From Eledone cirrhosa (lineage: Eukaryota): a stretch of 64,000 nucleotides of DNA. The DNA is taken from the NCBI GenBank assembly GCA_964016885.1, contig OZ024740.1, positions 282,596,001-282,660,000 on the forward strand, read 5' to 3'. Under the pieces are notes generated by a model. It was not told where the DNA came from. It saw nothing but the letters and a program-made list of their open reading frames with translations, and did no database searches. Of the stretch, positions 6,254 to 55,815 are shown one piece after another (within the stretch, counting starts at the first letter, position 1; every line of letters starts with the position of its first letter). The translations under genes and the position numbers were made by a program.

Positions 6254-6549
6254 CTGGAAAGACAAAAGAACACAATGATATCATAACTAGTATTAAATAC
6301 ATTAATAAATTGATAAAATAGGAGGAAAGCGTGCTAAGAGAAGAAAGTCAATCCACAAATTGACCATAGTCGCACTAGAATCGTATTGGATAATATATTT
6401 GTGAAATAAGGTATTACTGAAATTTACAGAAAGGACACACTAACAAATTATGAAAAAAAAAAAAAAAAAAAACATAAATGTATTTAAAGCAAAAATAGTT
6501 ATTGAAGAAGATGCCATTCTTTTCAATACGCAGTAATTAATCAAAAAAA

Positions 6550-6583
<34 letters not shown>

Positions 6584-6597
6584 TATATGTATAATAG

Positions 6598-6640
6598 TAC
6601 CACTGATGATGTCGCATATGTGTGACGAAAGTACTTTGAT
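6598..6640 (+). ncRNA. Isolated minimal HHR-like motif between TA repeats
   Basis: CTGATGA-T-GTCGCA/TGTGAC-GAAAGTACTT with palindromic stem III; stem I is only about 2 bp. Confidence 0.5.
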
Positions 6641-6837
6641 AGACTATATATATATATTTATATCTGTATATTTAACCGTTGGTCAATCAATGATAAACAT
6701 TGATTGCCAAATAAATTAACTATGGAGATATAAAAAAAATACAGAACCGTAAACCAACCAAACAGTGAGTGTGTTCTGTTATTATTTCTGGCAATATTAT
6801 AACAATATGACCCACGATTTCATATAAAAAAACCTTG

Positions 6838-6892
<55 letters not shown>

Positions 6893-6893
<1 letters not shown>

Positions 6894-7473
6894 GATGGCT
6901 GCCCCCTCGTTATCGAGTATGGCCATTGCACGATACACCATTATTAATAATCATTAATTAATGCTATCATGCAATGCCTGTGCGTGAAGTTTTTTTTAAA
7001 GGGAGAAAGACTGTGCACTGAGCCAATCCCACTCTCTGAGCGACAGTAGCTATAACCCGAAAAGAAGAAAAGGTCAACATCATCGGTAACTACTGAGTTG
7101 CATGTTTTATGTCGGAGTTATCCCAGTTTACTGAGTTGCCTTCTCCTAGAAGAATGCCCTGACAAATGCTAGAGGTTCTCCACTCCCAGTGGTTTAACCG
7201 CGAGATTGGGTATCCAGTCCGATTATTACTATGTGCCCGCGCAAACATATGTAGATGTGTATATATACATATTTACAGATTTTTGGATGGCCGTTGACTC
7301 TTATGAGTTCTTCCGCCCTTTGTCAGGTTTTGATTTTTGTCCTGCAGGGTTTCCAAAATCACCGTCCTCACCAAGTAAACATGGTGGGGTTGCTGGTTTA
7401 GTCACCGACGACCCGACCATGTGACAGGTTGTACTGGGTTACATGTTACCAGTAGCACTCAAGAGTGACCCGA
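6893..7473 (-). mobile_element. Diverged relative of the about 600-bp SINE-like family
   Basis: Shares ATGGCTGCC, GCAATGCCTGTG, CCTTCTCCTAGA and GACAGGTTGTACTGGG blocks; 5'-part relics also at about 24730-24925 and 45318-45440. Confidence 0.65.
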
Positions 7474-7498
7474 TATACATATACATACATACATGCAT

Positions 7499-7530
<32 letters not shown>

Positions 7531-8045
7531 TTATACACATACACACACACACACACATACACATACACACACACACACATATATATATATTTATATATAT
7601 ACACTCATACAAATAACATGCCATTTTATTAATGTCTCTGGCTGCATAGTAAATATTGATTTCTAAATACGAAACTTATTTCTCGAGGGAAAATATTCTA
7701 GTCGATCGTATCCGTTTAGTATATAACTGCTATTTTCTCATCGATTATAGAGTGATGCAAGACGAAAGGAAATACTGTGATCCATTTAATTCTGAATATT
7801 CATTAGAATCCCTGTTAAAAAGATTGACAATATCCAGAAATAAAAATTTGAAATATTTTAGTAGGCCGTTGGGGTGCAATTGCAAGTCCTCATTTCTACA
7901 AAAGAAATTGTGATGAAAAATATGGTTTTGTCGGAAAGTTCTTAAATTTTCAAAAGATATTGTATACTTTTCGCGTTTATTTTAATTACACGAAACATAA
8001 TAAAATATATACAATACAATAAATGAATAAAGATGTCATAATTAT

Positions 8046-8228
8046 CGTTTCTACTTTTGGCACAAGGCCAACAATTATCCCAGTGCATTACGGGTACTTT
8101 ATTTTATCGACCCGTAAGGAGGAAAAGCAAAGTTAACCTTGGTGGGATTTGTACTCAGACCGTAAAGGGACGTAATTCTATGCTGGAAAGCATGGCGTCC
8201 GACATTGTACTGATACTGCCAATCAACG
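8046..8228 (-). mobile_element. Nin/Deu-like SINE copy
   Basis: Same family as 1884-2760. Confidence 0.72.
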
Positions 8229-8855
8229 GCCCAAAAATGTCATAATAATGATTGGCGTGTATAAAAAAGATCCTTGACCTTATATTGTATATTGTATATA
8301 CCTGTCATCCTATAGAGCACATTTCTTGTTTTATATAAAGATGACATAAAAATAATGACATATTCGTATTCTACCTTATTATTATTTTTAATTACATTTT
8401 AAAAAAAATGTAGTAAATTTGAACTTTCAAAATATTTTTTTCATATTATCAATATCATCTATCATAGCTTTCTTTCACTTTTTTTTTTCTACCACTGTCA
8501 ATATATTTATCTATGTATTTTATAGATTGTTAATGTTGCTGCCTTCATAGAATAGACTTCATCAAGTCTGTAAAGTAGTTGTACTGGTGTCGCAAATAAT
8601 GCACCCAGTATCCACTCTAAAATTAATCATTTTTATTGGAAAATTAATCATTTTTGTCGGAAAATTATGAACACCTGCACGTCCAAACATGATAAGCAAT
8701 ACGCTTATGTTAGTAGGCTTTCAGATTTCCTATATATGACCTTCATCAAGACTATTTTATGGATAATAAATATCCCTGCATCAAAACTAATTATCCAAAA
8801 GAAATATAATTTCATATCTACAATGCTCAGTTAGCAGGTACAAATATAAACTTAC

Positions 8856-9458
8856 CTAGTATAATAGAATATGTTTTTTTAAAAACATTGTTGCAAGTCT
8901 TGTAATTGAGAAGTCCATATTTAAGAAGATATTTATCAAAACTTTCTAAGTTATGAGCAAATTGTTTGTGTGGCTCACTTGCAATGTCTTGTACATTTTC
9001 CATTTTAATATCAGAACGGACACCAACAACGAATACTTTTACTCCGGAATCTTTTAAAGAATTTGCTTCTCCCCTCGTTATTTCATCATTGCTCGAATTA
9101 CCATCAGTAAACATAACAAGTATACGGTCCGCTTTATATCTTGTTCTCTCTTCCATTTGGCACCAAAAATCATGACGTGCATTCTTCAAGGCATTACCTG
9201 TTCTTGTACCTCCACCTGTATGTTGAATGTTAGGTATCCATCTAATAAGTTCTTCTTTGTCATTACTGTCACCAAACTTTATAACAGGTATATATTTGTG
9301 ATTAAAAACAGATACAGCTACACGTGTCATTGTTGCGTTGATATCAAAACTACGAACACTATTTTCAACGACGTTTAACAGCTTTCTAAATTTGGGATAT
9401 GGGATGCTCGAAGATGTATCCAATAGAAACAAAATATCGGCAACATTATTTTTACACA
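8856..9458 (-). CDS. VWA gene A, exon 6 (VWA domain 2)
   Basis: CKNNVADILFLLDTSSSI...TRVAVSVF...GGGTRTGNAL...VMFTDG...IASEP; TTTGCAG acceptor and GTAAG donor; 603 nt, phase 1-1. Confidence 0.93.
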
Positions 9459-9635
9459 CTGCAAATTAATAATGAAAAAAATTATGTAATTGTCATTAAG
9501 CCACACAAAAAAAACAAACAAAAAAAAAACATTATGATACGAATACAAAGGTTATGAAGGACGTGAAGAATTAAAGAATTATTTGGAACATTTGATAATG
9601 CAGACAGGTTCGGTTTCTCAGTGTATTTAGGACAT

Positions 9636-9673
<38 letters not shown>

Positions 9674-9699
9674 CATACATACATACATACATACATACA

Positions 9700-10309
9700 T
9701 GGTGGCTGCCAACTCGTTTTCGAGTACGGCCACTACTTTATATCCATGTAGGAGAATCCCTACCGATGCGCTGAACGAATGTGACTTTTTAGTCCAGCCA
9801 GCGACTTGAAAACTCTGGTACAAAGACTACACTTGTGACCATTATTGACACATAGTGCAGGGCCCATGGTACCATGTGATGACAAGTGCAGAGAGATCTC
9901 CAGATATAAAGCAATGCCTGTGCTGTGAAGCTTTTATAGTGAGCAAAGGCACTGCACAAAGCCAGTCCCACTCTCTTAACCAAGATGATATTTACCAAAA
10001 AGAAGAACAAGTCAACATCATTGGATACCATCAGGGTTGCAGGTGTTATATCAGAGTTTTCCTTCTCCTAGAATTCTGCCTTGACAAAGGCTAAGGGGTC
10101 ATCTCTCCCGGTGATTTTGGATGGCTATTGAGTCTTAAGAGCTCCCTTGCCCTTTGACAGGTTTTGTTTTTAGTCCTGCAGGATGTCCAAAGTCACCCTC
10201 CTCACCAAGAAACCTTGGTGGGGTTGCCAGTTTAGTCGCCAACGACCCGACCATGAGACAGGTTGTACTGGGATACATGTTACCAGTAGCACCAACTGGT
10301 GACCTGACA
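9700..10309 (-). mobile_element. About 600-bp SINE-like element
   Basis: Embedded in (TACA)n; near-identical to 15151-15763. Confidence 0.8.
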
Positions 10310-12947
10310 TAGCATACATACATACATACATACATACATACATACATACATACATACTCCACCCTAACTATACCTTCAGATTTATAACTGTAATTATTGG
10401 GGCACTGTGATATGTTAGTAACTGCCTCAGTACAAATCTTGAGAAGCTGGGCTTCACAGAAACAGAACGAACACGACTAGTTAGTAAATTACAAGTACAA
10501 TCCATTAATGGAACAGTAAAAATATGTAAAACATTCCAAAAATTCTGCATCTAATAACTGCATGTACATTTGTACAGATACAGAGTATATGCACATGCAC
10601 ACATATAACTCAAAACATCCATATCCGCACATACAATAACATCCATACCTGCTCGCACATGCATGGATAAAGACATGCATACATATCTACCTAGTTGCTG
10701 TTGTGTAAATTCCATTGAGAGAGTCTTGTGTCTATGTTAGAAACCGACTCTCACTATTGGTAAACATTTATAAAATTATAAAACCAGAACATACATACAT
10801 ACATACATACATACATACATACATACATACATACATACATACATACATACATACATACATACATACATACGAACCTCGAAGCGTAGGAGCCCATCTATCT
10901 GCATGAGATAGATAAGATCATGAGAGTTGAGAAGGAATTTCTTGAAAGATATTCTCTGCATGATAATCAAAAACTCACACCCAGTGAAGTTGCCCAGCAG
11001 AACCTACTCTCTCTCTATTGGCAAACATTTGTGGAATTATAAAACCATAAGAACATACATACATAGAAAATCTGGATAACTCTATAATTGAAGATAAGCT
11101 TAGTCTTAACTTCAGGAAATCCTCAAACCTAGCGTTTGCTTTTTCCTATTAATTGAAACAGAAATACCAAACATATCACTTTCGGTCAAAAAATTTGAAA
11201 TATCTGTACAGGTTCGACAACTTTTCCGCATATTCAAAAGCAAAGATTACTGAGTTTTACTCAGATAGAAAACTTGCATTAAACCACATTCATTAAGGTA
11301 AAAATATGTAATGGAGCAGATCAGCGATCATTTTAGCAAGTGTGCTGTGCACACACACACACACATTCACAACCACACACACGAACAGATAAGTTCTTCG
11401 CTTCACAGTTAAGAGGTTCTGGTGTCAGTGTCGATTCCACTGCCTGGCATCTAGTGTAATTTGTTCTTTTAATCCATCGTTGTGAGAGAAATTAAGTAGA
11501 CAGAAACTAAGTGCTAGCCCGTCCGATGAACTGCACCGATAGATCAAGAAATCCACCCTGATTCTACTTGAATTATGTAAAAGATACATGTTTCTATTGA
11601 ATACTCAATCACCTCCAGCAGAGTCAACTCTGTTGTATTATTCGGACCATGTCTCCGATTGGCCGATTTAACTGTACCTTCCTACTTAACAGTAACAATT
11701 TTACATACACGCTAATTCATTGAGTAGGTAGGTTCAGTCGTGTTTGTGTGCGCCAGTGTTTGTAACTTGGAAATAGCATTTTCTCTTAAATATGTTACAT
11801 TAAAGCACATCTGTGCTCGACTTTTTATCTATCTTGCTAAGGATGATTTTCATTTCCTTGTTTCGTCAGGAACAATAACATCCTTACATCAATCGTTTTA
11901 TTAACGTTTCGAGACAGCCACGGTCATATCTTAAGAATAATATTGATAGTAATAATGGTGGGCTGGTCGCAATGGATTGAGGGAATACCAGTAAAATGTT
12001 CAACACCGGATTAAAAGAATATATGCAATGTTTAAGGTTTGGTAATTTTGATAGATAATTTCACGTTAACTGTATCTCTATGTTGAATTTTGGTTTGTAT
12101 TTGCTAGTAAAATCCTTCATATTTACTCTCCTCGTTTTATGTGAGATTCTATATAGAATTGTAGTACAATTTATTAATGTTTTCATTCTAAAGTTATTAT
12201 ATGTTCTGTATATTGCAATGGTCCCTTGTATATGTATGGCGCCAATAATTTGATATAACAGAATTAGCAACCAGTATTAATATACAAACCAGATATATTA
12301 TATACTACAACAACCAGATACATCCTAGTCCGGAATGGATAAATATACCAATAAAAAACTTATAAACCCAAAAGAACGCCTCTAACCATAAATAATAGAA
12401 TAATTGTTAGAATCTTGTATAAAAACACCAAAACGAAAAGCTTTATCATCACGAAACTACAAAATAGCACAGCACAAAATGTACTACAGACAACTAATGA
12501 AATACAATAATTCCAATGTAACTATGAACATTGTTACATCGAATATACAAGTATATACAATTTCACGCCGATTGATCAGGAATTTACAAGAAGACATGTT
12601 ATTTTTTCCTCTAGATTATATACTACAAACGCTACTGTATAATATACAATACAAAAAATATACAATATAGAAATTGGTAAAACGTAAAAGAATTCGAAAC
12701 AGTTAAAGTAGAATTACATGACTATTGACGAAAAACGAATTAAACATAAAATTACTATAAAATCTTACTGTAAAATAGTAAATTCAGCATAAATATAGAA
12801 CTAGTAGGAAAATAAGAATACGAAGCGTTGATAATATTTTGGGGAAAAACAGAAATGATAAAGAAATATATTGAGCTCGAAGAAACTTTGAAGGAGAATA
12901 ATATGATCTTATAAATGATTAAAGCGTAAGTAAAGTATGGTAGGTAC

Positions 12948-13187
12948 CACTTTCATCAGCCTGTGCAATATTAGCTGCTGATAATGGTGGCGCCAGAGTG
13001 ACTCTTCCGACTGCAGTTTTAGTTGTGGTTGAAATTTCTTCATTCGTAGAAGATTGTATAAGATTTGGTGTTGAGGCAACAATTGTGTGTTGTTTTGATG
13101 CAGTTGATGCCTTCTTCGTTGTATTATTTCCATGGCCCTGGGATAAACGCGTCATTAATATAGTAGCTTGCGAAGAAGTGATTAACT
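12948..13187 (-). CDS. VWA gene A, exon 5 (Thr/Ser-rich linker)
   Basis: TTCTTTACAG acceptor and GT donor; 240 nt symmetric phase 1; open and T/S/A-rich (ELITSSQAT...STTTKTAV...ADES). Confidence 0.75.
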
Positions 13188-14005
13188 CTGTAAAGAAAAC
13201 ATTAGTGTTTGAAATAATTCATGCTTTAACGAGGAATAACATTAAGAGCAGCAAAAATAGTTCAATGAAAAGTCATAAAGTTTTAATAAAATAATGTGTT
13301 TGTTAAATGTTGAGATAAATCTCAGAAAGAATTTTTAGTATTTGGCCATACCATTTCCATTTTAAACTTATTCGTTTTACCCAATTACTTTGCAGACTTG
13401 ATTAAGATAATATATCTGTCAAACTCAACTAAGGGACAAATTGTATATATACAGTTCAATGTGTACAAGTTAGCTAAATCATATTGACTTTTAGGCTTAT
13501 TGGTGAATTAACAGTAAACCATCGCATCTATAAATGTTTACAAAAATACTGGGATATACCATACCTATTAAGATATATTAATTTGCACATAAATCTATGT
13601 AGTTCAATTAAAGTTTTTCTTCTTCAATGTCACATGTCTTATATATAGTGTCTGAACAAAACTGTACATTACGAAAGAAAAATTCAATTTTAGAGAAGAA
13701 GGTGTAGCCGGGACTAGTGGAGAGGATGGCAAAAATGATTTTCATTCCAGAGACCTAGTTCGTGTTCATGCAGCAGAGTGGATATCGATAAAGGCAATAA
13801 CAACTTGATGGCTGGTATTTATCACTATTAGAGCTAAACTGAACTCGTTTTCTCTTTTTAAAATTAATTTTCAACTAGAAAATCTTATGATTTGTTTCGA
13901 TATATGCTGTGGTTTATGAACTAAAAGGTGAGGGCCATTGGTTCTATGACTAATTCATTATCGGTGATTTTTTTTTTTTTTTTAAATGGATGTAATTTAT
14001 CTTAC

Positions 14006-14444
14006 CTTCTTCACATGTTGTCTTTATAACATCAGCTTCAATACGATTCAGAAATTCATAGCTAACAGTTTGGATAATAAACCTACTCTTTGGCTCACTG
14101 GCAATACCTCTCAGTTCGTTATAATCAACACTTTTGCCAATACCAATGGTGAATAGCTTGATATTGGAATCACGACATTTCTTTGCAGCGGCTTGTGTGG
14201 CTTTAGGGTCGTAAGAAGCTCCGTCAGTTATTAAAATTGCTAAACGTTCAACACCATTCCTAGCACCATATTCCGGTTTAAACATCTCTGTGACTGTATA
14301 CAGAGCATCACCCGTGTTAGTCGTATCTCCTTTCAGTTGTATTATACCCTTAATTTTCTTGTTGATACTTTCATGGTCCGTCGATTCTTTCAGGTAAATA
14401 TTAATAACAGGCCAGTTACTAAAGGACAGAACCCCTACTCTTAT
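14006..14444 (-). CDS. VWA gene A, exon 4 (remainder of VWA domain 1)
   Basis: IRVGVLSFS...GDTTNTGDAL...ILITDG...FTIGIG...IASEP; TTCCAG acceptor and GTAAG donor; 439 nt, phase 0 to 1. Confidence 0.92.
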
Positions 14445-14555
14445 CTGGAATAAATAAGTAATATCGATTTAATTTACAGTGAAACATGAAGCAAAGAAAA
14501 ATGTTTGATTTAAATATTAGTGTCTATCGAAAACTTACAAACAATAAATATGTAC

Positions 14556-14698
14556 CTTATGTTGTTCGAGGCCAATCTCAAAATTGTCTGTTAGATATTT
14601 CACGAAGTCAAGTTGTTTCTGGAAATGAATAGGCCAGACACTTGCAGAAGAATCCAGTACAAAAACAATATCAGCAGGCATCCATTTGCAGTTCCTTG
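14556..14698 (-). CDS. VWA gene A, exon 3 (N-terminal part of VWA domain 1)
   Basis: [18 protein letters not shown] contains the MIDAS DxSxS motif; TTTAG acceptor and GT donor; 143 nt, phase 1 to 0. Confidence 0.9.
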
Positions 14699-14716
14699 CT
14701 AAATAATCAAAACAAT

Positions 14717-14767
<51 letters not shown>

Positions 14768-14817
14768 GCATACATACACACATACACACACATATATATA
14801 TACATATACATATATAC

Positions 14818-14904
<87 letters not shown>

Positions 14905-15081
14905 TATACACACACACACACATATATATATATATACACACATATATACCTATATAACCAAAGATTAGTATGGTTCGTTGATTACTCAATGAATAACATT
15001 TTACAATCGATTAGAAGCACTCAACAGTCAAATTTCCCTAGAGTTTTTAATATTATTGCAATTTTTATATACCTATATATA

Positions 15082-16280: not shown

Positions 16281-16533
16281 CGAAGGAAATGTGGTAAGGA
16301 ACCAGGTGGACCATAACGCACCAAAGTACTCAATACTTGAGGTAGTAGAGTGGGTAATAGGAACCAGTAAGACCCCGACAGCTGAGCTCAAGCCGTTTCG
16401 ACGGCTAATTCGAATTAGCCGTCGAAACGGCTTGAGCTCAGCTGTCGGGGTCTTACTGGTTCCTATATATATATATATATATAGATATAGATAGGTAAAT
16501 ATACACGGGTGTGTATGATTGTGTATAGAAGAT

Positions 16534-16921
16534 TATATTAATAAGAGGAATTCCAACTTTGTCTGATTTACTCGTTTTATTTACAATCCTTTAAAATATA
16601 TATAATGGTATTATAATGAAATAGTATGATAGAATATTAAATTCTAAGTGTTAATTGAACAAGTACTTTCATGCTTTCGCAATCTTCAAGTTCATGATAT
16701 GTGGTGACAGTCGAGTTTGCAATTTTCGAAAATTGCAAACTCGACTGTCACCACACATTATGAACCTGAAGATTGCGAAAGCATGAAAGTACTTGTTCAA
16801 TTAACACTTAGAATTTAATATTCTATCATACTATTTCATTATAATACCATTATATATATTTTAAAGGATTGTAAATAAAACGAGTAAATCAGATAAAGTT
16901 GGAATTCCTCTTATTAATATA
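16534..16921. repeat. About 388-bp fold-back palindrome carrying an HHR in each arm
   Basis: Arms symmetric about 16727/16728 with few mismatches. Confidence 0.9.
16762..16798 (+). ncRNA. Minimal type I HHR
   Basis: GAAC-CTGAAGA-T-TGC GAAA GCA-T-GAAAGTACTT^GTTC; 4-bp stem I, GNRA-capped stem II, palindromic AGTACT stem III. Confidence 0.82.
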
Positions 16922-16939
16922 TATATATATATATATATA

Positions 16940-19686
16940 TAATATAAGATCAAAAGATGGTTAAAGGAGTTCCATGTATTTTATTATGCGCATTTCAAAA
17001 ACAAACATCATCATGCAATAATATTTGTGTTTTCATCAGATAAAACAGGAGAACATGATATGAAGGCTAAAAAAACACTTGTGGATAGTGCAGTTTTAAA
17101 TCAACATATGAAAAGTGGTTTTAGATTGATGTGTGATATTGGGAAAAATATTTTATTTAGAGAGGAGGGGTGGAAAGGATGAAAAAGGGGAGGAGATGAG
17201 AGGGAGAGATGGGTGATAGAGAGAAAGAAAGAGATAGTTTTTATAACTGAGAGGAGATATATTGTTTTACATAGAGAGGTTGAAAACCGTTGGAAGATAA
17301 TGTATAAATTAAAAATTTGAAATTAACGAAGGGAGGATATGTGCGAGGAAAGAATATTTTATTTATGGAGGGGGGGGGGGAAGGATGAAAAAAGGGGGAG
17401 GAGATGAGAGTGAAGGTGGAGAGGGAGAGATGGGTGATAGAAAGAAAGAGATAGTTTTTATAACTGAGAAAAAGATATATTGTTTTACATAAATTAAAGG
17501 AATTTGAAAATTAACGAAGGGAATTTATGTATGAAGATAGAGAGAAAAAATAATAATTGTGGATGAATATTCTAACGTCAAAAAAAGTGTGTGTTGATAA
17601 GTATTGTGGCAATTTCAAAATTAACGAAGAGAAAAATTATTAAGGTTTGTGTGTAGAAGGATTTGAGAAAAATAATGTGAAGTTAAAGTTTGTATATTGG
17701 AGGAATTGATAATATATGCGAAATAAAGAGTTAATATGTATTAAGAATGAGTTCGTTGATGGGGAGAAAAAAATAATAAATTAAGGATGAAATTGAGATT
17801 AAAAAGATTTATGATAGAGAGAAAAAATAATAATGATTGCGGATGAATATTCTAACGTCAAAAAAATAAATGTATATGTTATGAAGGATTTTACAAGGTG
17901 AAGATAGAATGAGGGTAATGAGTAAACAAGTATTATGGAGTGTATAATGCCCTTTAAGGTAAGGTGGGAAGATGGGTATATTTTAAAGAGGTGTATGTAT
18001 ATGTGCCTTTGAGAAAAGATTCTAAATTGATAAAGAATTGAATATTAACTGTATACTTTGTGAAAAGTTCTATGGAATTTATGCAGGCAGATAGAAAATA
18101 AATCTTTACGTCTATTTATTATAGAATCTAGGTCAGAGATAATGGTAAATTTTTCATTTAGGCAGAGATTACAGATTTTAGATAGAGAGCTGTTCAAGTA
18201 TGAGGATGCAGAAGAAACCTTCCAAAAGATGGTATATTTAATGTTTTTGTCTTTTAAGGACCATATGAGTTCTGAGAGAGCAGTGTTGGTTCTTTTAAGT
18301 TTGTATTTGAAAGATGAATGATGATTATAGAGACGAGCTTTAAAAGAGGTGGAAGTGGAGCCAAAATAGGTGAAGGAATTGGTGCTAGTTATAATTTTAC
18401 ATTCATAAATTAAGTTTTTATCGAGACAATGGTTGTTGAGAGGACATTTATTTTTAGTGCGGCAGTTGCAATTAGAGAGATTATTAATGAGTGACCTAGT
18501 GTTATCTATAGAAGGAATTGGATTGGAGAAGTTGTTTGCGATAGGAATAATAGGAATAATAGTTTCTTGATTTAGAGTTGGATTATGAACATTTAGCGAA
18601 GTTGTGTTTGACGTTGTATTTGTGTTTACAGAAGTTAGCCTAGGGTTTACAATGACGTCGGGAGTACTATTATTGTTATTATGAAATTCAATGTTGGAAG
18701 GAAGAGATTTAGTATTTAGTATTTTATTGTTGTGTTTACTAACAACCCCCAGATCAGATTTAGAGGGGGCGATTAATCTAACAGGTAGTTCAGTGCGAAA
18801 ATTGTTTTTGTGATCCTTGAGATTTATCCTCGGAACCATTCCTCCCAAGAACTCGGAGGATAAATCTCAAGGATCACAAAAACAATTTTCGCACTGAACT
18901 ACCTGTTAGATTAATCGCCCCCTCTAAATCTGATCTGGGGGTTGTTAGTAAAGCCATCTTGGATAGAATTATCCCACAGGTTAGTTCTAATTGCTCTTCT
19001 TTGAACCTAAATTTATGGTTTGGTACTTCTGAAGTGATTGGCTGGTTCAACAAATTGGATAATAAAAACAAACTAAAATTTATTCAATTTGATATTGCCA
19101 GCTACTATTCCTCCATTTCGCCTTCACTTCTCAATAATGCTCTATCTTTCGCACTTAAATATTCTGACATCACCACAGATGAACTTCACATCATCCTCAC
19201 CGCACGTAAAACCATCCTAGAGTTCAACAACGAATATTGGACCAGAGCCGATACCTCTAACAACTTCGATATCACAATGGGAGCATCCGATTCATCCCAA
19301 TTGACTGATTTAATTGGTATCTTCATTTTGAACTCTTTGAGTCGGAAAATTCCTCAACTTCGCGGTGGAATTTATCGTGACGATGGACTCTTTACTATCC
19401 TAAATTGCAATATAGTTAACCTTAATATTATTAAGAACAATATACGTAATCTCTTTAACCAACATAACCTAAAAATTGAATTTGATAATAGTATCAAACT
19501 AGCTAATTTCTTGGATGTATCTCTTAATCTTGACACTGGCCTATATTACCCTTACCATAAAAACAATGAGAACCTAAATTATGTTAACTTTAAATCTAAC
19601 CATCCTACCAATATCAAGAATGCTATAGTTAGTAATATTGGAAAAAGAATATCTAACATATCCTCTAATAAAAACATCTTATCTTT
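16940..19686. mobile_element. Rearranged PLE family 1 (Hydra-clade-like): minus-strand GIY-YIG and 3'UTR/pLTR (16940-18740), hairpin, plus-strand RT fragment (18856-19686)
   Basis: RT motifs LKDHK, VRLI, FIQFDI, ITMG, IYRDDGL, FLDV; CNCRTKNKC (CxCx5C) linker; LIY...YFG endonuclease. Confidence 0.88.
16979..17045 (-). ncRNA. PLE family 1 HHR copy
   Basis: Reverse complement of the 24549-24615 motif; differences fall at the stem II loop. Confidence 0.8.
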
Positions 19687-20248
19687 GATGTACATTTTTA
19701 ACTTAATTGTTTAAGCGTCAGTCATACAAAAGTGAGTTACAAACGAAACGAAATTTAATTTCGTTTCGTTATTTGTTTTTATCGTCTCCGTTGAACCGGT
19801 ACGTACTCACACTCTATGCAAATTGGTCTGCCCACTACTAATTTTCATAGAAAAAGCATATAACGATATGTGCTTTTACGATTCTCCAGAAAGGCCGGTA
19901 GATAGGTAAATATTGCTGATGAGTTGTAACAACAACGAAACTAGTTCAATATTCCTTGTCTGGCTTTCTGGAGAATAGAGGAAAGGTGTTTCCTCAAAAA
20001 CCAGTATGACTCTAAAAACCGGTTTGTCTGTGTGTTTACATACAGAATAGCTGGATACTCACAGTAAAGTAACCAGTGAAAGACTTGGTACATCTACATA
20101 TGTATACGTGTGTGTATTCATATGCATACTAGTATTTCAGTATGCATATGTAGATGTACATTTTTAACTTAATTGTTTAAGCGTCAGTCATACAAAAGTG
20201 AGTTACAAACGAAACGAAATTTAATTTCGTTTCGTTATTTGTTTTTAT
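19687..20248 (+). mobile_element. Retrozyme-like non-coding element (466-bp unit plus 96-bp terminal redundancy)
   Basis: Exact direct repeat at 19687-19782 and 20153-20248; internal HHR; multiple hairpins; no ORF; ends in (TA)n. Confidence 0.72.
19909..19953 (+). ncRNA. Type I HHR with extended stem I
   Basis: AATATTG-CTGATGA-GTTG TAACAA CAAC-GAAACTAGTT^CAATATT; stem I continues via ATTCTCCAGAAAG (19881-19893) / CTTTCTGGAGAAT (about 19964-19976). Confidence 0.9.
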
Positions 20249-20314
20249 ATATATATATATATATATATCACAAAAAAAGAGAATCAGTGTTGCGACGAAT
20301 GGAATTTATTGGAC

Positions 20315-20404
20315 ATATTACAATCGTTTCTCTGGCGACCAGCTCGAGGCTCGATCGATGTGATGAGCGAACCTGACTCTGAAAATCGCAAGGTCCTCAG
20401 ATAC
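20315..20404 (-). ncRNA. HHR with long stem II insertion
   Basis: Minus strand reads GTAT-CTGAGGA-about 63 nt-GAAACGATTGTA^ATAT, then AATAAA; related to 53759-53845. Confidence 0.55.
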
Positions 20405-20870
20405 GTCTTGATTTTACGCAGCAGATTTCTTATTTATTTTTTTTTTGTGATATCATACTCTGTTCTATCAGACCATCGAGTGCTCAAACGGCCTACCGCA
20501 TACAGACGCTTTAGGCCGTTTGAGCACTCGATGGTCTCATAGAATATATATATATATAGGTTGTAATAGAATGAAAACGAAGTTCCATTTCTCACTCTTA
20601 GTACGGCACTTACTTAAATGTAAGTATGTATGTATGTGTACATACATATATGTATACAGACGTACAGTAGCATGCATATATATATATATATATATATATA
20701 CAGGTACACATACATATATGTACGTATCAGTTTAGCGGACGTTTATTATAACGTCCGCTTTGTCCGTTTGTAAACAAACTGACAGCCTGAATTTATGCCG
20801 TACGGTGTTAAGGCAACCACGTCACCTTTTTGTTCAACACTGACACAGGAACGATGTACTAGTTTCAAGT

Positions 20871-20957: not shown

Positions 20958-21048
<91 letters not shown>

Positions 21049-21171
21049 GGAGGTGAGTTTTATTGTAGTACAATAAAGCAATGCAGATATCGGATAAGAA
21101 GCACTCTACAGTTTGTGGGACTGGAGTATGCATAATATAAGATCAAAAGATGGTTAAAGGAGTTCAATATA

Positions 21172-21238
21172 TTTTATTATGCGCATTTCAAAAACAAACA
21201 TCATCAAACAATAATATTTGTGTTTTCATCAGATAAAA
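21172..21238 (-). ncRNA. PLE family 1 HHR copy
   Basis: Reverse complement of 24549-24615. Confidence 0.8.
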
Positions 21239-24200
21239 CAGGAGAACATGATATGAAGGCTAAAAAAACACTTGTTGATAGTGCAGTTTTAAATCAACAT
21301 ATGAAAAGTGGTTTTAGATTGATGTGTGATATTGGGAAAAATATTTTATTTAGAGAGGGGGGGAGAGAAAAGGATGAAAAGGGAAGGAGATGAGAGGGAG
21401 AGATGGGTGATAGAGAGAAAGAGATAGTTTTTATAACAGAGAGGAGATATATTTTATATAGAGGGGTTGAAAACCGTTGGAAGATACTGTATAAATTAAA
21501 AATTTTGAAAATTAACGAAGGGAGGATATGTGCGAGGAAAAAATATATTATATTTAGGGAGGGGTGGGGGTGGAAAGGATGAAAAAAAGGGAGGAGATGA
21601 GAGTGAAGGTGGAAAGGGAGAGATGGGTGATAGAGAGAAAGAGATAGTTTTTATAACTGAGAAAAAGATATAATGTTTTAATATAGAGAGGTTGGGAACC
21701 GTTGGAAGATAATGTATAAATTAAAGGAATTTGAAAATTAACGAAGGGAAATTATGTATGGAGATAGAGAGAAAAAAATAACGAAGGGAGATTATGTATG
21801 GAGATAGAGAGAAAAAAATAATAATTGTGGGTGAATATTCAAAAGGAGAAATGTAGGAATCTTAAAATTAGCAAAGAGAAAAAGTTTATGTATAGGATTT
21901 GAGAAAAATTTATATTGAATTCATATGTATTAATAATGAGTTCGTTGATGGGGAGAAAAAAATAATAATAATAAATTAAGGATGAAATTGAGATTAAAAA
22001 GATTTATGATAGAGAGAAAAAATAATAATGATTGCGGATGAATACTCAAAATGTCAAAAACAAATGTTATTGTTTTACGAAGAGATATAATGAGGGTGAT
22101 GAGTAAACGGGTATTATAGAGTGTATAATGCCCTTTAAAGTAAGGTAGATGGGTATATTTTAAAGAATATATGAGTATATATTAAAAAAAATATATATAA
22201 TAATAAATTAAGGATGAAATTGAGATTAAAAAGATTTATGATAGAGGGAAAAAAAAAAAAAAAAAAAAAAAAATAATAATGATTGCGGATGAATATTCAA
22301 AATGTCAAAAACAAATGTTATTGTTTTACGAGAAGATAGGATGAGGTAAATGAATAAACGAGTACTATAGAGTGTATAATGCCCTTTAAAGTAAGGTAGA
22401 TGGGTATATTTTAAAGAGGTGTATGTATATGTGCCTTTGAGAAAAGATTCTAAATTGATAAAGAATTGAATATTAACTGTATACTTTGTGAAAAGTTCTA
22501 TGGAATTTATGAAGGCAGATGGAAAACAAATCCGAGCGTATCTATAGTAAAATATTTAACAAACACACCATTAAATTTTCGTATTCTACATCCTCCAATA
22601 TTTCCAACATCATTTCTAAACACAACAACAAAATATTAAATACTAAATCTCTTCCTTCCAATATTGAATCTCATAATAACAATAATAGTACTCCTGACGT
22701 CATTGTAAACCCTAGGCTAACTTCTGTAAACCCAAATGCAACGTCAAACACAACTTCGCTAAATGTTCATAATCCAACTCTAAATCAAGAAACTATTATT
22801 CCTATTATTCCTATCGCAAACAACTTCTCCAATCCAATTCCTTCTATAGATAACACTAGATCACTCATTAATAATCTCTCTAATTGCAACTGCCGCATTA
22901 AAAATAAATGTCCTCTCAACAACCATTGCCTCGATAAAAACTTAATTTATGAATGTAAAATTATAACTAGCACCAACTCCTTCACCTATTTTGGCTCCAC
23001 TTCCACCTCTTTTAAAGCTCGTCTCTATAATCATCATTCATCTTTCAAATACAAACTTAAAAGAACTAACACTGCTCTCTCAGAACTCATATGGTCCTTA
23101 AAAGACAAAAACATTAAATATAACATCTTTTGGAAAAAGATTTCTTCTGCATCCTCGTACTTGAACAGTTCTCTATCTAAAATCTGTAATCTCTGCCTAA
23201 ATGAAAAATTTACCATTATCTCTAACCTAGAATCCATAATAAATAGACGCTCGGATTTGTTTTCCATCTGCCTTCATAAATTCCATAGAACTTTTCACAA
23301 AGTATACAGTTAATATTCAATTCTTTATCAATTTAGAATCTTTTCTCAAAGGCACATATACATACACCTCTTTAAAATATACCCATCTACCTTACTTTAA
23401 AGGGCATTATACACTCTATAGTACTCGTTTATTCATTTACCTCATCCTATCTTCTCGTAAAACAATAACATTTGTTTTTGACATTTTGAATATTCATCCG
23501 CAATCATTATTATTTTTTTTTTTTTTTTTTTTTTTCCCTCTATCATAAATCTTTTTAATCTCAATTTCATCCTTAATTTATTATTATATATATTTTTTTT
23601 AATATATACTCATATATTCTTTAAAATATACCCATCTACCTTACTTTAAAGGGCATTATACACTCTATAATACCCGTTTACTCATCACCCTCATTATATC
23701 TCTTCGTAAAACAATAACATTTGTTTTTGACATTTTGAGTATTCATCCGCAATCATTATTATTTTTTTTTCTCTCTATCATAAATCTTTTTAATCTCAAT
23801 TTCATCCTTAATTTATTATTATTATTTTTTTCTCCCCATCAACGAACTCATTATTAATACATATGAATTCAATATAAATTTTTCTCAAATCCTATACATA
23901 AACTTTTTCTCTTTGCTAATTTTAAGATTCCTACATTTCTCCTTTTGAATATTCACCCACAATTATTATTTTTTTCTCTCTATCTCCATACATAATCTCC
24001 CTTCGTTATTTTTTTCTCTCTATCTCCATACATAATTTCCCTTCGTTAATTTTCAAATTCCTTTAATTTATACATTATCTTCCAACGGTTCCCAACCTCT
24101 CTATATTAAAACATTATATCTTTTTCTCAGTTATAAAAACTATCTCTTTCTCTCTATCACCCATCTCTCCCTTTCCACCTTCACTCTCATCTCCTCCCTT

Positions 24201-24548
24201 TTTTTCATCCTTTCCACCCCCACCCCTCCCTAAATATAATATATTTTTTCCTCGCACATATCCTCCCTTCGTTAATTTTCAAAATTTTTAATTTATACAG
24301 TATCTTCCAACGGTTTTCAACCCCTCTATATAAAATATATCTCCTCTCTGTTATAAAAACTATCTCTTTCTCTCTATCACCCATCTCTCCCTCTCATCTC
24401 CTTCCCTTTTCATCCTTTTCTCTCCCCCCCTCTCTAAATAAAATATTTTTCCCAATATCACACATCAATCTAAAACCACTTTTCATATGTTGATTTAAAA
24501 CTGCACTATCAACAAGTGTTTTTTTAGCCTTCATATCATGTTCTCCTG

Positions 24549-24615
24549 TTTTATCTGATGAAAACACAAATATTATTGTTTGATGATGTTTGTTTTTGAA
24601 ATGCGCATAATAAAA
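24549..24615 (+). ncRNA. PLE family 1 HHR
   Basis: TTTTAT-CTGATGA-long GU-rich stem II-GAAATGCGCATA^ATAAAA; 6-bp stem I; palindromic ATGCGCAT stem III; AATAAA overlaps the cleavage site. Confidence 0.82.
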
Positions 24616-24647
24616 TATATTGAACTCCTTTAACCATCTTTTGATCT

Positions 24648-24713
<66 letters not shown>

Positions 24714-26080: not shown

Positions 26081-29020
26081 GCATGGAACAGTGGCAGTCT
26101 TGCATGGAACAGTGGCAGTCTTGCATGGAACAGTGGCAGTCTTGCATGGAACAGTGGCAGTCTTGCATGGAACAGTGGCAGTCTTGAATGGAACAGTGGC
26201 AGTCTTGCATGGAACAGTGGCAGTCTTGCATGGAACAGTGGCAGTCTTGCATGGAACAGTGGCAGTCTTGAATGGAACAGTGGCAGTCTTGCATGGAACA
26301 GTGGCAGTCTTGCATGGAACAGTGGCAGTCTTGCATGGAACAGTGGCAGTCTTGCATGGAACAGTGGCAGTCTTGCATGGAACAGTGGCAGTCTTGAATG
26401 GAACAGTGGCAGTCTTGCATGGAACAGTGGCAGTCTTGCATGGAACAGTGGCAGTCTTGAATGGAACAGTGGCAGTCTTGCATGGAACAGTAGCAGTCTT
26501 GCATGGAACAGTGGCAGTCTTGAATGGAACAGTGGCAGTCTTGCATGGAACAGTGGCAGTCTTGCATGGAACAGTGGCAGTCTTGCATGGAACAGTGGCA
26601 GTCTTGCATGGAACAGTGGCAGTCTTGCATGGAACAGTGGCAATCTTGCATGGAACAGTGGCAGTCTTGCATGGAACAGTGGCAGTCTTGCATGGAACAG
26701 TGGCAGTCTTGCATGGAACAGTGGCAGTCTTGCATGGAACAGTGGCAGTCTTGCATGGAACAGTGGCAGCCTTGCATGGAACAGTGGCAGTCTTGCATGG
26801 AACAGTGGCAGTCTTGCATGGAACAGTGGCAGTCTTGCATGGAACAGTGGCAGTCTTGCATGGAACAGTGGCAATCTTGCATGGAACAGTGGCAATCTTG
26901 CATGGAACAGTGGCAGTCTTGCATGGAACAGTGGCAGTCTTGCATGGAACAGTGGCAGTCTTGCATGGAACAGTGGCAGTCTTGCATGGAACAGTGGCAG
27001 TCTTGCATGGAACAGTGGCAGTCTTGCATGGAACAGTGGCAGTCTTGCATGGAACAGTGGCAGTCTTGCATGGAACAGTGGCAGTCTTGCATGGAACAGT
27101 GGCAGTCTTGCATGGAACAGTGGCAGTCTTGCATGGAACAGTGGCAGTCTTGCATGGAACAGTGGCAGTCTTGCATGGAACAGTGGCAGTCTTGCATGGA
27201 ACAGTGGCAGTCTTGCATGGAACAGTGGCAGTCTTGCATGGAACAGTGGCAGTCTTGCATGGAACAGTGGCAGTCTTGCATGGAACAGTGGCAGTCTTGC
27301 ATGGAACAGTGGCAATCTTGCATGGAACAGTGGCAGTCTTGCATGGAACAGTGGCAGTCTTGCATGGAACAGTGGCAGTCTTGCATGGAACAGTGGCAAT
27401 CTTGCATGGAACAGTGGCAGTCTTGCATGGAACAGTGGCAGTCTTGCATGGAACAGTGGCAGTCTTGCATGGAACAGTGGCAGTCTTGCATGGAACAGTG
27501 GCAGTCTTGCATGGAACAGTGGCAATCTTGCATGGAACAGTGGCAATCTTGAATGGAACAGTGGCAGTCTTGCATGGAACAGTGGCAGTCTTGCATGGAA
27601 CAGTGGCAGTCTTGCATGGAACAGTGGCAGTCTTGCATGGAACAGTGGCAGTCTTGCATGGAACAGTGGCAATCTTGCATGGAACAGTGGCAATCTTGAA
27701 TGGAACAGTGGCAGTCTTGCATGGAACAGTGGCAGTCTTGCATGGAACAGTGGCAGTCTTGCATGGAACAGTGGCAGTCTTGCATGGAACAGTGGCAGTC
27801 TTGCATGGAACAGTGGCAGTCTTGCATGGAACAGTGGCAGTCTTGCATGGAACAGTGGCAGTCTTGCATGGAACAGTGGCAGTCTTGCATGGAACAGTGG
27901 CAGTCTTGCATGGAACAGTGGCAGTCTTGCATGGAACAGTGGCAGTCTTGCATGGAACAGTGGCAGTCTTGCATGGAACAGTGGCAGTTTTGCATGGAAC
28001 AGTGGCAGTCTTGAATGGAACAGTGGCAGTCTTGCATGGAACAGTGGCAGTCTTGAATGGAACAGTGGCAGTCTTGCATGGAACAGTGGCAGTCTTGCAT
28101 GGAACAGTGGCAGTCTTGCATGGAACAGTGGCAGTCTTACATGGAACAGTGGCAGTCTTACATGGAACAGTGGCAGTCTTGCATGGAACAGTGGCAGTCT
28201 TGCATGAAACAGTGGCAGTTTTGCATGGAACAGTGGCAGTCTTGCATGGAACAGTGGCAGTCTTGCATGGAACAGTGGCAGTCTTGCATGGAACAGTGGC
28301 AGTCTTGCATGGAACAGTGGCAGTCTTGCATGGAACAATGGCAGTCTTGCATGGAACAGTGGCAGTCTTGCATGGAACAGTGGCAGTCTTGCATGGAACA
28401 GTGGCAGTCTTGCATGGAACAGTGGCAGTCTTGCATGGAACAGTGGCAGTCTTGCATGGAACAGTGACAGTCTTGCATGGAACAGTGGCAGTCTTGCATG
28501 GAACAGTGGCAGTCTTGCATGGAACAGTGGCAGTCTTGCATGGAACAGTAACAGTCTTGCATGGAACAGTGGCAGTCTTGCATGGAACAGTGGCAGTCTT
28601 GCATGGAACAGTGACAGTCTTGCATGGAACAGTAACAGTCTTGCATGGAACAGTGGCAGTCTTGCATGGAACAGTAACAGTCTTGCATGGAACAGTGGCA
28701 GTCTTGCATGGAACAGTGGCAGTCTTGCATGGAACAGTAACAGTCTTGCATGGAACAGTGGCAGTCTTGCATGGAACAGTGGCAGTCTTGCATGGAACAG
28801 TGGCAGTCTTGCATGGAACAGTGGCAGTTTTGCATGGAACAGTGGCAGTCTTGCATGGAACAGTGGCAGTCTTGCATGGAACAGTGGCAGTTTTGCATGG
28901 AACAGTGGCAGTCTTGCATGGAACAGTGGCAGTCTTGCATGGAACAGTGGCAGTCTTGCATGGAACAGTGGCAGTCTTGCATGGAACAGTGGCAGTCTTG
29001 CATGGAACAGTGGCAGTCTT
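26081..29020. repeat. Minisatellite, 140 x 21 bp (GCATGGAACAGTGGCAGTCTT)
   Basis: 2940 bp with no indels; frames stay open across the array; only sparse substitutions. Confidence 0.97.
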
Positions 29021-31436: not shown

Positions 31437-31595
31437 TGTGAGTGGATTGGCAGTATCGGTAGGGGGTCGGACGCCATGATTTGACGCATAGTTATGGCCC
31501 TTGCCATTCTGAGTTCAAATCCCGTCGAGGTTAGCTTTGCCTTTCATCCTTACGGTGGTAATTGCTGGCCTTGTGCCAAAAGTAGAAACAATTAT
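31437..31595 (+). mobile_element. Nin/Deu-like SINE copy (internally deleted)
   Basis: TGGCAGTATCGG A box, GAGTTCAAATCCC B box, GCCTTTCATCC. Confidence 0.7.
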
Positions 31596-31619
31596 TGTTT
31601 CGGATGTTTTATGTAAATA

Positions 31620-31682
<63 letters not shown>

Positions 31683-31684
<2 letters not shown>

Positions 31685-34600
31685 ACGCGTTCGTCGATGC
31701 CAGCCGTAGCACCGTAAATCGTTTCGACTTCCGCCACCGTTCCAAAGGGAATAACATCACACGGGGCGAAATCCTCGCTCTCCGCTCCCTCTGTAGCCGA
31801 GATGACATCGTCATCAAACCGGCGGAAAAGGGAGGCGCCGTGGTGGTGTGGCGCGCGGACCTCTACACGGCCGAAGGCCTCAGGCAGCTCCGTAACCCTC
31901 TCTTCTACCGCCCTCTACCCTCCGTTCCCACACCCCTCTACCAACAACAAGTTTCCTCCACCATCCAACACCTTGTCTCCTCCCCCCCCCCACCGCTTCC
32001 CACCTCATCGTCCGCACCCTCCGCACCCCCACCATCTACTTCCTCCCCAAAATCCACAAACCCGACAACCCCGGCCGCCCCATCGTCTCCGCTTGCAACT
32101 GCCCCACCGAACTCATCTCCGCCTTTCTTGACTCCATCCTCGCCCCCCTTGTCACCACCCTCCTCTCCCACATCTCCGACACCAACCACGCCCTGCGCCT
32201 TTTCGACTCCTTCACCTACCCACCCGGCCCACAGCCCTTCCTCTTCACCCTAGACATCAAGTCCCTCTATACCGTCATCCCCCACGCCGACGGCCTACGT
32301 GCCCTCAAGCACAACCTCGACCTTCGCCCCTCCTACATCCCCTCCACCCCACCCTCCTTCGCCTCGCCGAGCTGGTCCTCACCCTTAACTGTTTCTCCTT
32401 CTCGGGTGAGTTTTACCAACAGGTCACGGGGGTAGCCATGGGTACAAGAATGGGCCCAAACTATGCCAACCTTTTTGTTAGCCATGTTGAGGCCCAAATC
32501 TTTGCCCAGTACACCGGCCCCACGCCCGAACTGTACGGTCGTTACATCAACGACTGTATCGGAGCCACGACCCTCACCCGAGAACAGCTCGACTCCTTTC
32601 TCTCCTTCTTCTGCTCCTTCCACCCCTCCCTCCACTCCACCACCTCTATCTCCACCACCCATGTCCACTTCTTAGACATCTCCGTCGCCTTCGACCCCGC
32701 CCACCACTCCCTCGTCACCTCCGCCTTCTTCAAACCCACCGACTCCCACTCCTACCTCGACTTCACCTCTTCCCACCCCACACACATTAAACACTCTATT
32801 CCCTACTCCGAACTCCTCAGGATCCGCCGCCTCTGTAGCCGAGATGCTGACTTTGAGTCCCAGGCCCTTTCCCTAGTCAGCCATTCCATCCGCAGAGGTT
32901 ACCCCCCCCCTCTTTCGTCCACACCGCTCTCACCCGCGCCCGTGCTGTCCATCTCTCCACCACCCTCAGCCCCCGCCACCGCACACCTACCCACCGTCTC
33001 CCCTTCCCCATCACCTACCACCCCTCCATCATACCCCTCCACCGCACCATCCTCCGCCTCTTCCGACGCCTCCAGTCCGACCCCTCCATCTCCCACATCT
33101 TCCCAGCCCCACCACTCCCCTCCTTCAAACGCGCACGCAATCTCCGCACCCTCGTCGTCCACAGCTCCCTATCCCCCAACCCACGCTCCCCCCGGTTCCT
33201 TTCCCTGTCCCAGGCCCCGCTGCAACACCTGTCCCGACATCACCAACACCACCACCTTCCAGGGTCCCAACAGCCACTCTCTCTCTGTCCGGCATGTCTT
33301 CCGCTGCACCTCCTCCAATTTAGTCTACGTACTTCGCTGCACGGAGTGTAGCGCGACTTACGTCGGACAGACTGGACGTCGCCTGGCGGACAGATTTACT
33401 GAACACCTCCGGGATATTCGTCTCGGTGGTAGTTCCCCCATCGCCCGCCACTTTGGTGCCCCTGGACATTCGGCACACCACCTCACAGTCTGTGGCATAC
33501 TCCAATGCCACGGAACAGCCGCCACTCTCCTCAGGGTCGAACAACGAACCATCTTCACCCTACACACCCACACTCCCCCGGCCTGAACTCCCCACCCTTA
33601 TTCCTTTAGCCTTCGACCGCCCCTTCCCCCACACATATCCCCCATTAACACCACTAACACACCCCTCCTTTTCACCGCCCACCCCACAACTAACAATACT
33701 TACACCTCCACATCACACCCGACCACCCTTCCCCAACTAACATAGTAACATCCCTCCCTTCTTCTCCCCCCTTCCTTATCACACGCACACACCCACCGGT
33801 ACATATAAACACGCGCTCACACTAAACACACACCCTAATACCACCACTAACCCTCACCCCCACACGTCCACCCCACCACCCCGCAACTAACATCACTAAC
33901 ACCCCCCGACCCCAAGCACACGAACACACACACCCAGTTACACCACCCACTTTACACGCAATTAACATCACTAACACCTCCCAACCCTACGCACACGAAC
34001 ACACACACTCCCTTACACCACCCACTCTACACACCTTACCACCACTGACCCCCACTCACACCCGCATTCAACCCTTTCTCCACCTCCAGTATACTAACAC
34101 CCACTAACACCCCCTTCACCACACACACACTCATCCAAACACGCACGCACACACCAGTACACTACACTCCCTCCATCGGCCCCCACACCCTTCTCTCCCC
34201 GCTCCACCCACACCCTTTCTCAAACACACACACATCCCACTAACACCTCTACTAATACACACACACCCCTCATCACTCCAACGTTCACACCTAGCCATCC
34301 TCTCCCCTGTCCACCGCACCTCCGCACACACTGACACACCGACTTTCTTCACTTACCATTCTACCCTACTGCTGCTATGCCTCTCTGACCACCTCCCCGC
34401 ACACACAGACACACAACCTTCCTCCTGCCTTGACCCTCTGACCACTTCCTGTTGCGCGGGCACCCCACATCTCCCCTCTTCCGACCAATCTCTTCACGGA
34501 TTACACATATGTGAACCTTGATCCCGAGAATCCACCACATCCCAAGGATATTACTCAGCATTTCACCACACCGTCTACGGAATTACCTTAACGTCTCACC

Positions 34601-34826
34601 CTCGGACATACACCCCCAACATTTTTTTTTCCCACACGCCACCTACATCCACAACACGCATAAACACCACACACACACGTGCGTACCACCACATATTTAC
34701 ACATTCAGCCTCCAGAATCCTCTCACCCCACCCATCTATCCACACACGCACACACACTCCGACCTACACCCCACCCCACACACATCTGTTCCTGAACATG
34801 CAGCCCCGTTCTTCCCCCAACTCTTA

Positions 34827-34897
<71 letters not shown>

Positions 34898-35290: not shown

Positions 35291-35352
<62 letters not shown>

Positions 35353-35467: not shown

Positions 35468-35553
<86 letters not shown>

Positions 35554-55495: not shown

Positions 55496-55815
<320 letters not shown>

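Follow-up and report, generated by a model that had tools for sequence, protein, structure and literature searches.

A retrozyme-like hammerhead repeat joined to a reverse transcriptase fragment in what is likely one head-to-head Penelope-like insertion

The window analysed here is a stretch of 64,000 nucleotides whose mobile elements appear to sit in introns of a VWA host gene or gene cluster. Exons with VWA or VWA-like domains lie on the minus strand at 5715-14981 and 52570-53160, and a search with a VWA exon found no homologue of the host gene. Our subject is the interval 16939-20248. This is likely one head-to-head insertion of a Penelope-like element (PLE) that we call family 1, a reverse transcriptase (RT) piece being its inverted arm. 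The right part of the interval is a short repeat with a hammerhead ribozyme, which we call the unit.

The left edge lies in a (TA)n target tract at 16917-16940, common to this insertion and a neighbouring palindromic pair of PLE ends. From there the 3' non-coding region of family 1 occupies 16939-18044 on the minus strand, with a tail-less 3' end and a type I hammerhead (core 17039, TGCGCA loop). It matches other family-1 arms at 81% overall and at 96% across the last 240 nt. The linker and endonuclease half follow on the same strand at 18045-18738, with the motifs CxCX5C, CxxC and CxH. They complete the left cDNA arm, which is 5'-truncated at 18738; its normal continuation beyond that point is seen as a contig loose end. 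A 100-nt fold-back copy of the RT piece (18735-18834, minus strand) is joined to the left arm via a 4-nt overlap at 18735-18738 and forms a 99% inverted repeat with 18853-18952. The RT fragment itself (18833-19690, plus strand) corresponds to about residues 199-465 of a full Hydra-type ORF and is the inner part of the right arm; contigs in two public runs, X1 and X5, match it from 18833. It is inverted relative to the rest of the insertion (16939-18738, minus strand), a point absent from the preliminary description of this DNA. The RT piece stops about 100 codons short of the sequence with which the left arm begins, and these codons are absent.

The motifs of family 1 appear to fit the Hydra clade of PLEs. 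There is a C-terminal GIY-YIG endonuclease with a CxCX5C linker, CxxC and CxH and no CCHH, as read by eye in the ORFs 18045-18866 and 57146-58180 against section 11 of PMC8557442, and Pfam gave no match on the family-1 endonuclease region. The targets are (TA)n, and the end repeat has a hammerhead of its own. The passages of PMC8557442 at hand describe Hydra-clade PLEs as having the same C-terminal endonuclease (CxCX5C, CxxC, CxH). They too insert in (TA)n, have a hammerhead close to the 3' end and form inverted, 5'-truncated arms of which only one is tailed. The tail of family 1 measures about 88 nt versus 30-40 there, and unlike those elements one arm here ends in foreign RNA rather than in the family's own end. 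The N-terminal RT region (RWK, DKT site) is absent from the window, and the motif counts come from relatives: among 26 relatives of at least 690 aa, RW[KR] occurs in 17, ADK[TS] in 18, ADKG in none and CxCX5C in 14. Only three of the eight top RT relatives looked up are named proteins, all of them from Argonauta hians. This would be compatible with a cephalopod, which the preliminary description had called the probable host, but such matches are weak evidence of the host because they are transposon proteins.

The unit was first described as a non-coding 466-bp sequence with an exact 96-bp terminal redundancy and a 3' end in (TA)n, and we confirm each of these points. Positions 19687-19782 and 20153-20248 are 100% identical over 96 nt at an offset of 466. 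The first copy is a partial upstream unit, and the full unit, measured from the 3' end, is 19783-20248 on the plus strand. The copy at this locus is 1.2 units long with a single hammerhead, and its 3' end sits in the right target tract, an (AT)11 at 20247-20268. The GC content is 35%. Sequence comparison found neither an ORF nor a PLE-like coding remnant in the unit, tblastx giving low-complexity matches only, and there is no second copy within the 64-kb window, where the unit matches itself and TA-rich sequence. To its right are a further multi-copy repeat (20270-20430), whose depth in X1 is 87-129 thousand, and an imperfect 82-nt palindrome at 20456-20545 that ends in (TA)n.

By motif, fold and covariance match, the unit has a type I hammerhead with an extended helix I (19881-19976, plus strand), a core at 19916-19946 and a predicted cut after 19946. 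The core begins with CTGATGA at 19916; helix II (GTTG/CAAC) has four to five pairs and is followed by GAAA, helix III is one pair with the palindrome CTAG as its loop, and proximal helix I has 7 bp. Helix I reaches about 19881-19976. The claim of a complete hammerhead at the tip of a long stem I is borne out. The Rfam model Hammerhead_HH9, run at a relaxed threshold, is covered in full (1-77, including the helix I bulge and loop 2) with E 3e-8 at 38.6 bits, which falls below its gathering score of 52. At gathering scores, Rfam has no match anywhere in the 64-kb window. Rfam miRNA and sRNA matches over the hairpins of the unit lie far under their gathering scores, and we take them as chance. 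Type I with an intact core is the hammerhead form of non-LTR retrozymes. As far as the axolotl ribozyme HHR_Amex1 is described in the sources at hand, the one-pair helix III and palindromic tetraloop of the unit resemble it, and the portions of PMC4209133 and PMC7229834 available to us give such an architecture as the canonical metazoan form, which cleaves efficiently only as a dimer. Because this copy has only one hammerhead, with a one-pair helix III, we predict that it should not release a monomer unaided.

Folding the circularised unit, a check that the preliminary description proposed, gives -156.6 kcal/mol with 67% of bases paired and, relative to 40 shuffles, a z of -9.8. For the minus strand z is -8.8, and the strand can therefore not be read from the fold. 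Among six control stretches, five have z of -0.2 to -2.3, and the sixth (20270-20735, in which a palindrome and microsatellites lie) has -7.6. In the predicted circular fold helices I and II of the ribozyme form, as would be expected of a self-paired retrozyme monomer. A perfect 13-bp triloop hairpin occurs twice, at 19742-19770 and 20208-20236 (plus strand); the second is 10 nt before (AT)n and is a candidate start signal for RT. A long hairpin is predicted at 20088-20159 on the plus strand, and in the circularised unit the junction point would fall 7 nt inside its 3' arm. Among the additional hairpins listed previously, the triloop is present and one at about 19850-19875 is found in the predicted fold, whereas the 12-bp CATATGCATACT pairing is possible but competes with the longer helix at 20088-20159.

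Public reads show that the unit is not confined to this locus. Its words occur in 20 of the 24 runs listed (16 studies, 17 organism labels), none of the runs with such words being recorded as RNA, and contigs of four of the 24 were compared with window positions 18000-20460. X1 and X5 are two runs of organism A, and X4 is a run of another organism. The contig depth of the unit relative to the RT piece is 15 in X1, 7.6 in X5 and about 1.6 in X4, and relative to the endonuclease half it is 8.8 in X1 and only 1.0 in X5, where depth is summed contig depth and is not equal to copy number. Many variant contigs match the unit, which has the multiple copies of a retrozyme. The unit is a multi-copy, non-coding, hammerhead-bearing repeat family, and the single-copy sequence that the preliminary description named as its own refutation is not what the contigs show. 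In X4 it is held by four contigs with depths of 2.6-4.5. Raw reads from another sample of organism F (X22, 1,938 million letters) contained none of it, a result from which we draw nothing. X4 is the sole run of another organism whose contigs were compared; we take its contigs to be probable trace DNA and make no claim of horizontal transfer of the unit across species.

Depth along the unit is flat in X1 and X5 (maximum over minimum 1.4-1.5), and in the same runs the depth of family 1 varies 6- to 22-fold and is lowest toward the 5' part. A 496-nt contig in X4 (466+30) runs from 20152 into 19687 and so closes a 466-nt cycle. It is important to realize that this proves neither arrays nor circles because any copy with a redundancy of at least 31 nt yields such a contig. 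Flat depth and the closed contig are compatible with tandem arrays and are also produced by 1.2-mers. Among the 14 loose ends listed (there are 218 others) no well-supported branch leads from the unit into other sequence.

A search of metagenomes with the hammerhead pattern gave 34 matches, and the unit itself is not among them. About 24 do not fold as hammerheads. The remaining ten or so fold as type I hammerheads with the identical CTAG loop, seven of them being located within or next to PLE-like coding sequence or the homologous region upstream of it. The exact pattern has no match in viral contigs and prokaryote genomes, where none is expected. Four metagenome contigs (L011, L014, L024 and L034) belong to a two-ORF PLE-like family in which the CTAG-loop hammerhead is directly 5' of a 450-aa ORF1, with telomere-like CCCTAA repeats before the hammerhead and an RT ORF downstream. 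Another, L006, is a nearly full Hydra-type PLE with a 725-aa open frame; its hammerhead, again with a CTAG loop, precedes (TA)n by about 35 nt.

This bears on the idea that the unit is the end repeat (a pLTR with a partial tandem) or a gutted form of another coding PLE family, which would make the junction a chimera of two PLEs. The company that CTAG-loop hammerheads keep with PLE coding sequence speaks for it, as does a preprint (bioRxiv 10.64898/2026.07.22.740005) that, in the text available, traces animal retrozymes to pLTRs. However, the unit has no ORF remnant, its depth is flat, its contig is closed and its listed loose ends lack a well-supported branch. At E 0.01 the unit matches the HH9 model, and the eight metagenome hammerhead loci that were scanned do not. 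We consider this explanation very improbable, although the preliminary description had set it out as a possible refutation. Family 1 does not supply the end repeat either: the unit has no similarity to three family-1 3' regions (best blastn E 0.085), so a family-1 pLTR is rejected. An ancestry of the unit from some pLTR is compatible with the explanation that we prefer below.

The unit has the features of a metazoan non-LTR retrozyme that could be judged from its sequence, and we call it retrozyme-like. The accessible parts of PMC7229834 and bioRxiv 10.64898/2026.07.22.740005 describe such retrozymes as non-coding, low in GC, self-paired and provided with a canonical type I hammerhead, and also as multi-copy and co-occurring with PLEs; in the short, non-coding and low-GC character of its 466 nt the unit agrees. 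Its length slightly exceeds the range of 150-450 bp given in the former and lies within the 51-972 bp of the families in the latter. Tandems of two or more units are usual for retrozymes, whereas this copy has 1.2 units, one hammerhead and no target site duplication. Dispersed monomers are described in the passages seen of both papers, and in the terms of the preprint, as far as they are set out there, this copy would be a monomer-class derivative. The clearest difference is that the unit is physically joined to PLE coding sequence, while both papers, in the same parts, infer the PLE link from a shared motif, co-occurrence or pLTR homology rather than from junctions.

The junction was first described as the 5' end of the unit abutting a family-1 RT of the same orientation that breaks off at about 19680, with no microsatellite between them. 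This is correct, and the join can be refined. Family-1 copies elsewhere stay in a normal ORF past 19680 (eight contigs in X1, one in X4). Comparison of the window with this loose-end continuation places the junction at 19681-19690 (plus strand): after 19680 there is a 5-nt duplication (19681-19685) and then five further RT bases; the final four (19687-19690) belong to the unit as well. An RT/unit microhomology of at least 4 nt is expected at 2.1% of random joins. There is neither (TA)n nor any other microsatellite at the join. Two further joins of the microhomology type lie at this locus, the fold-back and 18735-18738, and because of these the insertion event appears to have been jump-prone. 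Divergence from the X4 contigs is 6/456 for the unit and 7/594 for the RT piece, which would be compatible with one age for both. The reading that two RNAs were ligated at ribozyme-made ends was rejected, the junction being 260 nt upstream of the cut site.

One might suspect a chimera of assembly or library, for the locus is repeat-dense and none of the 21 contig pieces listed (3973 others exist) spans the junction. Such a product would hardly be expected to combine microhomology and a 5-nt duplication with an exact repeat of 96 nt and the right polarity for a head-to-head arrangement, and we regard an artefact as extremely improbable.

The neighbouring insertions provide the frame in which the junction should be read. 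In all three other head-to-head PLE insertions examined (21047-24655, 55812-58457 and 16505-16921) the element's 3' end stands against (TA)n at both edges, and exactly one arm of each is tailed. The same two-ended, one-tail pattern is published in the legend of Fig. 2 of PMC8557442. In 16939-20248 the family-1 arm is tail-less, and the other outer edge is formed by the 3' end of the unit, which has the polarity of a template. The insertions at 21047-24655 and 55812-58457 are young family-1 copies whose endonuclease regions are 100% identical along 710 nt; one arm of each carries a tail of about 88 nt beginning with ATG and a 30-codon open frame, possibly the start of the ORF. The interval 16505-16921 contains a 387-nt near-perfect palindrome made of the head-to-head 3' ends of another PLE family. 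Each of its arms has a small hammerhead (cores 16766 on the plus and 16689 on the minus strand) with a GTAC loop, and the left one is extended by about 35 nt of AC-rich sequence.

Biochemical work on another PLE suggests how two RNAs could enter one insertion. As reported in the passages of PMC11167929 at hand, the Poseidon element PAc nicks and extends both target strands, its protein is predicted to be a dimer, and two fixed internal RNA start sites give the tail; hammerhead cleavage is dispensable in vitro for this one PLE. PAc is of another clade than family 1, and those passages report neither trans-use of a non-coding RNA nor template switching. With a PLE protein of this kind, which nicks and extends both strands, is a predicted dimer and has fixed starts, the simplest single event would be a left cDNA made on family-1 mRNA and a right cDNA begun on unit RNA. 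Our preferred reading, in which we place about even confidence, is that 16939-20248 is one two-ended family-1 insertion whose right cDNA began on unit RNA and switched to family-1 mRNA.

The steps would be as follows. By analogy with the part of PMC11167929 just cited, the PLE protein would nick both strands of a (TA)n tract and extend both ends. The left arm, as far as 18738, has the make-up of an ordinary family-1 3' end without a tail. The right end would start on unit RNA at 20246 and be carried over a complete unit and a further 96 nt. At 7 nt into the long hairpin the RT would jump via the 4-nt microhomology to a part of the same family-1 mRNA not yet copied, landing about 300 nt upstream of the left-cDNA stop, slip by 5 nt and then copy about 850 nt of RT. 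Finally the right cDNA, which does carry the inverted 100 nt described above, would have folded back, copied 100 nt of its own sequence and paired with the left cDNA over 4 nt. That the RT piece lies about 100 codons upstream of the left-arm break and does not overlap it is what one expects if both come from one mRNA. The template must have crossed the cut site intact, so it would be a circle or an uncleaved tandem transcript. The preliminary description took the more-than-unit length to fit reverse transcription around a circle; a circle is compatible, but a tandem transcript fits the 1.2-unit copy equally.

The same bases can be produced in another way. Microhomology with a short templated duplication is also a mark of end-joining deletions, and the 4-nt microhomology and 5-nt duplication at this junction suit such a process. 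The unit could have been moved by another PLE family and inserted separately, and about 2 kb of the family-1 right arm could then have been lost. A complete right arm would have ended in (TA)n, and the loss could have occurred at the attachment of the unit's 5' end or in later microhomology-mediated end joining. This agrees with the common preference of the unit and family 1 for (TA)n and with a region that is a nest of insertions; the two have no sequence in common, and related hammerhead cores exist in PLEs of other types (L023 and L011/L014/L024/L034). Yet two events are needed, with the inner break falling just upstream of the left-arm break, the unit and the RT piece show similar divergence from the X4 contigs, and the same arm contains two more unusual joins. 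We judge a deletion between two insertions to be somewhat unlikely, though a serious rival. On what PMC3846280 shows in the parts available, microhomology-mediated deletions do occur in PLE copies.

In a third scenario the unit would be the target rather than a template. Family 1 would have landed beside an older unit, and a trimmed DNA 3' end would have primed internally on family-1 mRNA, as in twin priming. The locus does have the L1 twin-priming pattern of inverted, non-overlapping, in-order pieces of one mRNA joined with microhomology. A PLE 5' junction made by microhomology is reported in the accessible portion of PMC3846280. This scenario would require that every (TA) between the nick and the unit was lost, both arms of the other three insertions begin at fixed element ends, and PAc, on the available account in PMC11167929, starts at fixed internal RNA sites without target homology. 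A literature search found no study of twin priming in PLEs, and we consider the scenario distinctly unlikely here. Given the head-to-head position, the microhomology and the absence of a tailed arm, no other single origin of the junction is as likely as a template switch, which the preliminary description had ventured. Chimeric L1 retrogenes (U6/L1) and L1 twin-priming inversions are known cases of two RNAs or two priming events in one insertion. Unlike in the U6/L1 chimeras, the non-autonomous RNA here would be the outer one and copied first, and the junction is 260 nt from a ribozyme cut site.

How a family-1 protein might accept the unit is a more speculative matter. The family-1 tail ends about 13 nt past the only perfect triloop hairpin of at least 8 bp in the roughly 3.4 kb scanned. 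The unit, too, has only one such hairpin, and its end is 10 nt past it; both observations are post hoc. Nine of the 466 unit positions would satisfy this distance from hairpin to end. We tentatively suggest, while holding it to be rather doubtful, that the locus is the fossil of a Hydra-clade PLE dimer with its own mRNA in one half and, in the other, an unrelated, possibly circular hammerhead RNA recognised by shape alone. The triloop hairpin, about 10 nt ahead of where copying starts, would then mimic the tail of the helper without shared sequence, a post hoc hint. The parallel is not general, because L006, scanned over its first 260 nt and behind the hammerhead, has no triloop hairpin of at least 6 bp.

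The preliminary description had suggested that a retrozyme would be physically linked to its helper RT. The sequence confirms the join, but it is one junction, and family 1 would be a candidate for the regular helper. Chance adjacency is common because the (TA)n tracts are crowded with independent insertions (16535-16921, 20270-20430, 20456-20545 and 21047 onward). From hammerhead to end the unit measures about 300 nt, as against 48 and about 135 nt for family 1 and about 35 nt for L006. Of the hammerhead cores found, that of L023, a PLE of another type, comes closest to the unit's (87% over 38 nt). No cross-mobilisation between two PLE types in one rotifer is reported in the part of PMC3846280 at hand.

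PLEs have been called a strong candidate for spreading animal retrozymes (PMC7229834, in its accessible text), and animal retrozymes have been argued to be non-autonomous PLE derivatives from co-occurrence and pLTR homology (bioRxiv 10.64898/2026.07.22.740005, likewise). What seems new here is a physical chimera of a retrozyme-like RNA and a PLE inside a two-ended insertion of the PLE type; a literature search, which covered mostly titles and abstracts and had subscription papers outside its coverage, found no report of a chimeric retrozyme/PLE insertion. Seen as a whole, the observations of the preliminary description hold, and so do its reading of the unit as a repeat distinct from a family-1 end and its suggestion of a template switch, but its circle is not distinguished from a tandem transcript. 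A junction that places a retrozyme-type RNA within a PLE insertion names a specific protein and RNA pair on which the helper question would be testable. If the one-event reading is true, it would name a helper that spreads such repeats, and should the pair function with no sequence in common, retrozymes could be parasites of PLEs from which they do not descend. If the junction is the product of a deletion, we would have a new but ordinary retrozyme-like family of a probable cephalopod, a group on which our search yielded PMC8557442 only.

Several other elements of the window deserve mention. Two copies of a C-rich PLE of another type, with RT and GIY-YIG, lie at 31500-35300 and 60000-62870; their 3' region is very long, and near 35170, just ahead of (TA)n, there is a minimal hammerhead-like motif. 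An additional RT/GIY-YIG element at 35546-38923 has inverted arms of 933 nt with 99% identity. Finally, a 21-nt minisatellite of about 140 copies at 26081-29020 is open in several frames on both strands.
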